Part shown: in pieces, positions 8,538 to 9,652 of the stretch
Layout: each line of letters starts with the position of its first letter
Numbering within the stretch: the first letter of the stretch is position 1
Assembly: GCF_053078305.1 (NCBI RefSeq)
Contig: NZ_CP166879.1
Direction: 5' to 3' (one strand)
DNA: 64,000 nucleotides
Notes under the pieces: generated by a model
Seen by the model: only the letters and a program-made list of their open reading frames with translations
Database searches by the model: none
Told to the model about the DNA's origin: nothing
Program-made: the position numbers and the translations under genes

Positions 8538-8717
8538 GCGATCCTACCTTCACTGGATAAAAAGTCAATAAAATGATCATTTTATGATCGTTTTCACCAC
8601 CTAACTCTTCGTTTTCTTTAAGTAAATAATCACCGCCCTGAATCATTGTTGATGACTTTTCAATCTATTTGTTGTATCAATTAAACAAATCGAATCGATC
8701 GTTTTTGTCGATCGATT
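8538..8717. promoter_or_regulatory. GATC-dense control region upstream of com/mom-like genes (candidate Dam-methylation-sensitive promoter region)
   Basis: Five GATC sites (8540, 8575, 8586, 8697, 8710) in about 175 bp, including inverted repeat AATCGATCG-N7-CGATCGATT. Confidence 0.4.
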
Positions 8718-8760
8718 GCATGAGAAAGGCATCAACAACAAAGCAGGAGGTTATGCGGCC

Positions 8761-8961
8761 ATGTATCGAAACATACGGTGCCGACACTGCAATAAGCTAC
8801 TGGCACGGGCCAGTTTCAGTTATCTGGAAGTAAAATGTCCGCGCTGTAAAACCCTCAATCAAATCACATCTCCGAGCGCCACAGAGCACCCCACATACAC
8901 AAGGAAATCCTGTCGTGGGGAACAGAAAGCAAGTCACATCCCGTATCATCAGCACGCCTGA
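8761..8961 (+). CDS. com: Com-like zinc-finger translational activator
   Basis: 66 aa from ATG 8761; [14 protein letters not shown]...EVKCPRCK resembles Mu Com as recalled; 3' end overlaps the next ORF as in Mu. Confidence 0.6.
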
Positions 8962-9652
8962 ACTTATTCGCTATAACGACAATATCGTTGGTTATGGTTC
9001 CCGTGAGTTGCGGGTTGAGACAATAAGTTGCTGGCTGGCCAGACTGGTTATCGTCAATAAACATTACAGCCACCGTTTCGTAAATAACTCCTACCTTCAT
9101 CTGGGCATATTTTCAGAACGGGAACTTGTTGGCGTAATGCAATGGGGTTACGCCCTTAACCCAAACAGTGGTGCACGCGTCGTAACGGGTACGCAGAACC
9201 GAGAATATATGGAGCTGAACCGGCTATGGATGCATGACTGTATGCCGAGAAACTCCGAATCAAGGGCAATCAGTTACGCGCTCAAGCTAATCAGGCAGCT
9301 TTATCCGCAGGTACAGTGGGTTCAGTCGTTTGCAGATGAGCGTTGTGGCTGTCTTGGTGTCGTGTATCAGGCAAGCAATTTTGATTATGTAGGCAGCCAT
9401 GAAACAATATTCTATGAACTTGATGGCGAGTGGTATCACGAGATTTGCAGGAATGCCATTAAACGAGGCGGACAACGAGGTGAACATCTGAGGGCTAATA
9501 TCGACAGAGCCAGTGTGCATAAGTTCCGACAGTTTCGTTACATCCGGTTTCTGAACAAGAGGGCCAGAAAACGCCTCAACACAAAGCTATTCAAAGTCCA
9601 GCCTTACCCAAAACCACAAACAGTTAAAACTGGTTTGAAAGAGAGTGAATGA
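8915..9652 (+). CDS. mom: Mom-like DNA modification protein (start codon uncertain, non-ATG)
   Basis: 245 aa ORF overlapping com by 47 nt, last gene before the prophage end; assignment mainly by context. Confidence 0.45.

Follow-up and report, generated by a model that had tools for sequence, protein, structure and literature searches.

The right-end com-mom operon of a Mu-like prophage of the Sp18 type in yciQ very probably follows the Mu model

The Mom protein of bacteriophage Mu transfers glycine from Gly-tRNA(Gly) onto position N6 of adenine in double-stranded DNA, and a subsequent rearrangement yields N6-carbamoylmethyl-dA (PMC13219725). Four residues of Mu Mom are essential (R111, S124, D149, and R151), five others are important (H58, Y59, W48, Y159, and W181), and a helix-turn-helix (HTH)-like insertion is essential for activity and has been proposed to contact the DNA (PMC13219725). 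The enzyme tolerates the loss of 10 residues upstream of its GUG start, and more distant metagenomic homologs have been reported to be active in the same assay (PMC13219725). The RNA target of Com in Mu is a short hairpin beside a translation-inhibition structure that holds the GUG start of mom in its stem, and both the SELEX motif of Com, GAGNNCC(N)2-3GAGNNCC, and the geometry of the hairpin have been described (PMC6483171). The zinc-binding cysteines of Mu Com are C6, C9, C26, and C29 (PMC3299994). Transcription of mom in Mu needs Dam methylation of GATC sites that are otherwise bound by OxyR, and it also needs the activator C, which acts on a weak, T-tract-bearing promoter (PMC3378877). Genes for Mom and its regulator are described at the corresponding position in Sp18-type Mu-like phages (PMC3299994; PMC2669165). 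A GATC pair of related design is found in the gtr system of phage P22, where GATC3 and GATC4 lie at -46 and -33 and form a 13-bp pair inside one OxyR half-site (PMC2909390).

In the window analyzed here (the whole 64,000-nucleotide stretch of contig NZ_CP166879.1), a com-mom operon lies at the extreme right end of a transposable Mu-like prophage of the Sp18 type that is inserted in yciQ, and the operon very probably works by the Mu model, a reading to which a probability of roughly 0.88 is assigned. The com/mom module as such is already known and is annotated in hundreds of genomes. It is present in 232 out of 5426 complete Escherichia coli genomes with 95-100% conservation, and RefSeq names its products “Com family DNA-binding transcriptional regulator” and “protein mom” or “Mom family adenine methylcarbamoylation protein.”

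The com gene (8761..8961, plus strand) starts with ATG and encodes a 66-aa protein that, by homology, is a CCCC zinc-ribbon translational activator. Its Shine–Dalgarno sequence, AGGAGG (8746-8751, plus strand), lies 9 nt 5' of the ATG and is conserved in the aligned loci. The likeness to Mu Com that the initial annotation of this DNA had pointed out was borne out by matches to Pfam PF10122 (Zn_ribbon_Com, E = 2.2e-12) and PHROG 13819 (gpCom, control of modification, E = 5e-13) and by 47% identity to Mu Com, with C7, C10, C27, and C30 aligned to the Mu cysteines C6, C9, C26, and C29. None of the NCBIfam models scored above cut-off against the 66-aa protein. Judged by these profile matches and the four aligned cysteines, the protein is a Com zinc ribbon of the PF10122 family. 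An imperfect inverted repeat of 23 nt (8637-8659 and 8725-8747, 78% complementary) is found upstream of the gene, and its right arm enters the com Shine–Dalgarno sequence; the idea that this repeat masks the Shine–Dalgarno sequence in read-through transcripts was dropped, as the left arm is not conserved in the sister loci.

The mom gene (8915..9652, plus strand) encodes 245 aa, by homology a GNAT-fold DNA adenine-N6 modifying enzyme. Two features of its start that had been claimed earlier, a 47-nt overlap with com and a non-ATG start codon, are both present: the overlap spans 8915-8961, and the GTG (GUG in the mRNA) at 8915 is the sole start codon in the mom frame, with 0 ATG, GTG, or TTG codons back to the stop at 8831. 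A GUG homologous to the one at 8915 is common to Mu, the D108/SfMu-like phages, and the window-type phages, and a shared start at this codon fits the finding that Mu Mom tolerates removal of the 10 upstream residues (PMC13219725). The initial annotation had left the Mom identity of the 245-aa protein conditional and had proposed a comparison with Mom and GNAT-fold families. This comparison returned a clear similarity to Mom, consisting of a match over the full length of the Pfam Mom family model (PF25680, model positions 1-202 out of 202, E = 3.7e-77), a match to PHROG 1384 (Mom-like DNA modification protein, E = 8.6e-84), and a gap-free alignment to the crystal structure of Mu Mom (PDB 8BV8, E = 2e-123). 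The identity to Mu Mom is 79% over 229 aa, again without gaps. No NCBIfam model captured Mom in the profile search. On the basis of the full-length model match and the alignment to 8BV8, the protein is a true Mom-family enzyme.

The overlap of the two genes had been read as the arrangement by which Com unmasks mom translation in Mu, and the RNA elements found at the com/mom junction bear this out. A candidate Com RNA target, GAGCGCCACAGAGCACC (8874..8890, plus strand), matches the SELEX motif GAGNNCC(N)2-3GAGNNCC and is the only match in 64 kb, where 0.08 matches are expected. The corresponding Com hairpin has 4 bp (8876-8879 with 8886-8889, including one C·A mismatch at 8877/8888) and a 6-nt loop of the CC(N)2-3GAG type with a C-G closing pair. 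It lies directly 5' of a translation-inhibition hairpin (8889..8920, plus strand) in which CCCCAC (8889-8894) pairs with GUGGGG (8915-8920). This second hairpin, with a folding energy of -12.6 kcal/mol (z = -2.1), is a start-codon-sequestering structure of the kind for which the folding of 8890..8930 had been proposed as a check: the GUG start of mom makes up three of the pairs in its 6-bp stem, and its loop contains a Shine–Dalgarno-like sequence, AAGGA (8901-8905). Nucleotide 8889 belongs to both helices, which are therefore mutually exclusive, and the stabilization of the first helix by Com should loosen the second because this nucleotide is common to both.

The conservation of the two helices was assessed in an alignment of the com/mom junction that comprised 11 non-identical loci drawn from 80 viral contigs. 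All pairs of the Com hairpin (4/4) show changes on both sides among the 11 loci, and the inhibitory stem shows pairing in 100% of the cells, with an outermost pair that changes from U-A in the Mu type to C-G in the window type. Taken together, the two helices are paired in 98% of the cells; the covariation score is reached by 0 out of 500 shuffles, and slid controls drop to 23-64% paired. Folding also predicted a 5-bp hairpin in Mu (AUGCU/AGCAU); unlike the 4-bp hairpin described in the literature, it is not conserved across the loci. Nothing above noise came out of an Rfam scan of 7300-9900. The gene overlap, the buried GUG start, and the adjoining Com motif support the view that the Mu arrangement is reproduced in this prophage. 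According to the Mu model (PMC6483171), from which the melting step itself is carried over, Com would be translated from the same mRNA as mom, bind the upstream hairpin, and melt the inhibitory hairpin; Mom would then be made only after Com has accumulated, late in lytic growth.

The transcriptional part of the Mu model was the second resemblance claimed by the initial annotation, in the form of five GATC sites that fall within ~175 bp, two of them inside a 9-bp inverted repeat, as an echo of the Dam-methylation control of the Mu mom promoter. The sites are indeed located at 8540, 8575, 8586, 8697, and 8710, a span of 174 bp (8540-8713), and the inverted repeat consists of AATCGATCG (8693-8701) and CGATCGATT (8709-8717), 9 bp that are 100% complementary and that include the GATCs at 8697 and 8710. 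The echo is limited to these two sites. The sites at 8540, 8575, and 8586 (8540..8589) lie outside the module, within a truncated minus-strand gene (8646..8326) that covers about residues 1-75/77 of the 135-position phrog_26524 profile and is a frameshifted pseudogene in RefSeq. Two sister loci with the same com/mom module (L009 and L016) have other DNA with only one GATC at the position of 8540-8589, and conservation among com/mom loci with differing upstream DNA begins at ~8650, so that the conserved regulatory module and presumed promoter region extends over 8650..8760 (plus strand). Because the other three sites are replaced in the sister prophages, only the GATC pair of the inverted repeat belongs to the module. 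The five-site cluster is unusual and not unique, and alone it is weak evidence: of all 175-bp windows in the 64-kb sequence, 0.3% contain five GATC sites, and such windows are seen at ~4 other places, including one inside adhE. The pattern GATCG-N7-CGATC is expected 0.12 times per 64-kb window and was found twice; the second occurrence (36953-36969) lies inside the adhE coding sequence within a five-GATC cluster and serves as a chance control. The truncated minus-strand gene also contains a perfect AT-rich palindrome of 18 bp, ATAAAATGATCATTTTAT (8567-8584), with the 8575 GATC at its center.

Every Mu-type, window-type, and more distant locus examined retains the GATC pair of the inverted repeat together with its 13-bp spacing, and the flanking DNA diverges. 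The pair aligns with the GATC sites II and III of Mu mom; Mu site I is absent, which leaves two out of three sites. Relative to the com ATG the pair is found at -64/-51 in the window versus -91/-78 in Mu, 27 bp closer, and because of this shorter distance the alignment of the window with Mu has no counterpart to the Mu C-binding box, the T-tract, and the TAAGAT -10 element. The geometry thus differs from that of Mu. The sequence ATCG-N7-CGAT (8698-8712) resembles an OxyR dimer half-site of the ATAG-N7-CTAT type; by eye, one good half-site is visible and the flanking 15-mers match the consensus poorly. A search for sigma-70 promoters over 8250-9800 gave no consensus match in the conserved module 8650-8760. 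Two hand-picked promoter candidates, ATGACT-17-TATCAA (8651-8679) and TTGTCG (8705), were dropped as weak and because relatives do not conserve them. 

From the conserved pair and its OxyR-like context, Dam/OxyR control of com-mom is plausible. Transcription of the operon may be gated by Dam methylation of the two GATCs in the 8693-8717 palindrome, which in its unmethylated state would resemble an OxyR dimer half-site, although this step is put forward more tentatively than the translational one. With a distance of no more than 47-64 nt to the com ATG, the palindrome probably adjoins or overlaps the core promoter; in Mu, by contrast, the corresponding region lies upstream of an activator site.

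The strongest competing explanation holds that neither the cluster nor the palindrome has anything to do with Dam or OxyR: the cluster would be due to chance, the palindrome would be the site of another factor or a minus-strand terminator, and com-mom would be controlled otherwise, for example by a C/Mor-family activator at an unrecognized site or by read-through. It draws on the location of three of the five GATCs in an unrelated truncated gene, on the comparable GATC clusters inside adhE, on the loss of the Mu geometry with its OxyR site upstream of the C site, and on the inverted repeat together with a T-rich run, which scores as terminator-like on the minus strand. Against these points stand the 13-bp GATC pair, which Mu, D108/SfMu-like, window-type, and distant loci share at the homologous position despite diverging flanks, and the fit of the palindrome to the ATAG-N7-CTAT-type half-site, similar to the methylation-sensitive gtr half-sites (PMC2909390). 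The likely C-box of the Sp18-type phages argues against it as well, since it differs from the palindrome. A late-promoter box (CTGAwATyCCGCAAArCCyGCC), equally spaced to TTAyGCT in both cases, is found at Plys and PI of an identical prophage (NZ_CP075697.1, 29573-29643 and 21674-21848), upstream of the lysozyme and head protease genes; it resembles the Mu Plys box and is probably the binding box of the Sp18-type C homolog. No copy of this Plys/PI box was found near com with up to 3 mismatches allowed (<=3). A C-box look-alike, AATAATCACCGCC (8626-8638), was rejected because it falls in the minus-strand gene, beyond the conserved module, and is not retained in L009 or L016. On balance, control unrelated to Dam and OxyR is considered rather unlikely.

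A more specific variant of Dam/OxyR control can be formulated, in which com-mom transcription in the Sp18-type phages has been rewired relative to Mu, with a promoter that overlaps the palindrome and is under direct control of the methylation state and of occlusion by OxyR, independent of the late activator C. It is suggested because the Mu C-box and -10 element are absent and the distance from the Dam-sensitive, OxyR-like palindrome to the com ATG is 47-64 nt, and it is offered as a speculative proposal with a low probability. If it were true, methylation-dependent and possibly heterogeneous expression of mom could result.

The position of the operon within the element was defined from the prophage boundary. 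The right-end sequence of the Mu-like prophage occupies 9653..9780 (plus strand) and ends in ...TCGCCGCGCTATA, and the host gene yciQ resumes at 9781. Another strain has the same prophage in bcsA, and homology to that copy breaks off at 9781, the position at which homology to an uninterrupted yciQ starts; the prophage end is therefore placed at 9780, with yciQ as the insertion site. The distance from the end of mom to the prophage end is 128 nt, as in Mu. The interrupted yciQ (DUF2207) is represented by a 423-aa ORF (9759-11030, minus strand) that reads into the prophage end. The 9780/9781 junction is shared by none of the best-matching complete E. coli genomes listed, whose matches all begin at 9781. 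The full element present elsewhere (the bcsA copy) carries a Mu transposase, an AAA ATPase, Gam, and Mu-type head and tail genes, and its Mor/C-family activator is 40% identical to Mu C. In the prophage of NZ_CP075697.1 a “tRNA-OTHER” is annotated between head genes.

A cargo region of ~3.5 kb (5255-8650) that has no equivalent in Mu separates com from a gin-like invertase gene (4604..5164). It encodes a 685-aa protein (SASA sialate-O-acetylesterase plus DUF6645), small proteins of the DUF1378 and DUF826 families, small ORFs, and the truncated minus-strand phrog_26524 gene, a gene set that resembles the NanS-p region of Stx phages. An imperfect tandem duplication of ~80 bp is found at 8350-8510, where 8350-8402 and 8429-8481 are 75% identical; it has no match in Rfam. 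CC(A/T)TTTATGTAGT comes after both copies, and a 13-bp terminator-like hairpin (8460-8489) with a run of T behind it closes the second one.

The presence of pseudogenes among the neighboring cargo, the inclusion of only the right 9.8 kb of the prophage in the window, and the lack of a recognizable promoter would fit a silent remnant, that is, a prophage or operon that is non-functional and from which Mom is never made. Such decay is hard to reconcile with two intact ORFs in which the catalytic, zinc-binding, and RNA elements are all preserved. The module is furthermore 95-100% conserved in 232 genomes at many insertion sites, which implies recent transposition, and Sp18 has been judged intact in the literature (PMC2669165). 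A silent remnant is therefore regarded as very unlikely.

For the activity of the enzyme, the sequence differences between the window protein and Mu Mom were considered. All nine functionally tested residues of Mu Mom (9/9) are identical in the window protein: R111, S124, D149, and R151 correspond to positions 103, 116, 141, and 143, and H58, Y59, W48, Y159, and W181 correspond to positions 50, 51, 40, 151, and 173. The HTH-like insertion of the GNAT fold (Mu residues ~175-209) is present without gaps and contains ~8 substitutions. The chemistry is most likely of the Mu type, glycyl-tRNA dependent with N6-carbamoylmethyl-adenine as the product, because of the 79% gap-free identity and the conservation of all nine tested residues, and the earlier suggestion that it may differ from that of Mu Mom found no support in these comparisons. 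A Mom relative with another chemistry or sequence specificity, as could be read from the 21% of amino acids that differ (including those ~8 in the insertion, Mu residues 175-209) and from a C-terminal extension of 12 aa, is highly improbable given that the nine residues whose mutation impairs Mu Mom are all identical, that the alignment to 8BV8 has no gaps, and that even distant metagenomic homologs are reported to be active in the same assay (PMC13219725). By homology to Mu Mom, the enzyme would transfer glycine from Gly-tRNA(Gly) to the N6 of adenine in double-stranded DNA to give N6-carbamoylmethyl-adenine, and the modified adenine would protect the phage DNA from many restriction enzymes.

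The strain thus carries a Mu-like prophage that is in all likelihood able to momylate its own DNA and thereby to escape many restriction systems, which bears on phage-mediated gene flow among STEC-type E. coli. Beyond the correct annotation of the locus the significance is slight. As to the transcription of com-mom in the Sp18 lineage, the Dam-site palindrome is conserved and the promoter and C-box architecture of Mu is not.

Three known systems allow a direct comparison with the locus. The Dam/OxyR switches of agn43 and gtr (P22) share with it a 13-bp GATC pair within one OxyR dimer half-site near or overlapping the core promoter, the window site being a candidate for such an element. Unlike in these switches, one half-site is evident in the window and a second GATC pair or alternative OxyR site was not found, so nothing suggests phase variation of com-mom. 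The second system is the Mu-like prophage Sp18 of E. coli O157:H7 Sakai with its relatives in STEC: the O157:H7 module is 98.7% identical over 91% of the 1461-nt query, Mom and its regulator occupy the corresponding position (PMC3299994), and the identical proteins are assigned to the Com and Mom families in RefSeq. The window differs from them in its insertion site, yciQ, and in the leftmost ~126 nt of the query (8300-8426), which are missing from the O157 copies.

The third is com-mom of Mu itself (Mup54/Mup55, NC_000929), from which the window operon differs in several respects. The Com proteins are just 47% identical, the window Mom has 2 additional amino acids at the N-terminus and 12 at the C-terminus, and the upstream ATG annotated in the RefSeq record of Mu is missing. 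Mu GATC site I, the C-binding box, the T-tract, and the TAAGAT -10 element are absent, the GATC pair is 27 bp closer to com, and the invertase gene is set apart from com by ~3.5 kb of cargo, whereas gin abuts com in Mu. In contrast, gene order and location at the right end of a transposable prophage are the same, and the overlap of the genes is 47 nt in the window compared with 50 nt to the GUG of Mu. Two of the three regulatory GATCs of Mu are kept in a AATCGATCG...GATCGATT context. In both operons the GUG start is part of a CCCAC/GUGGG hairpin that the Com-binding hairpin directly precedes on the 5' side, and both operons encode a Com with the same four cysteines and a Mom that is 79% identical with the tested residues kept.
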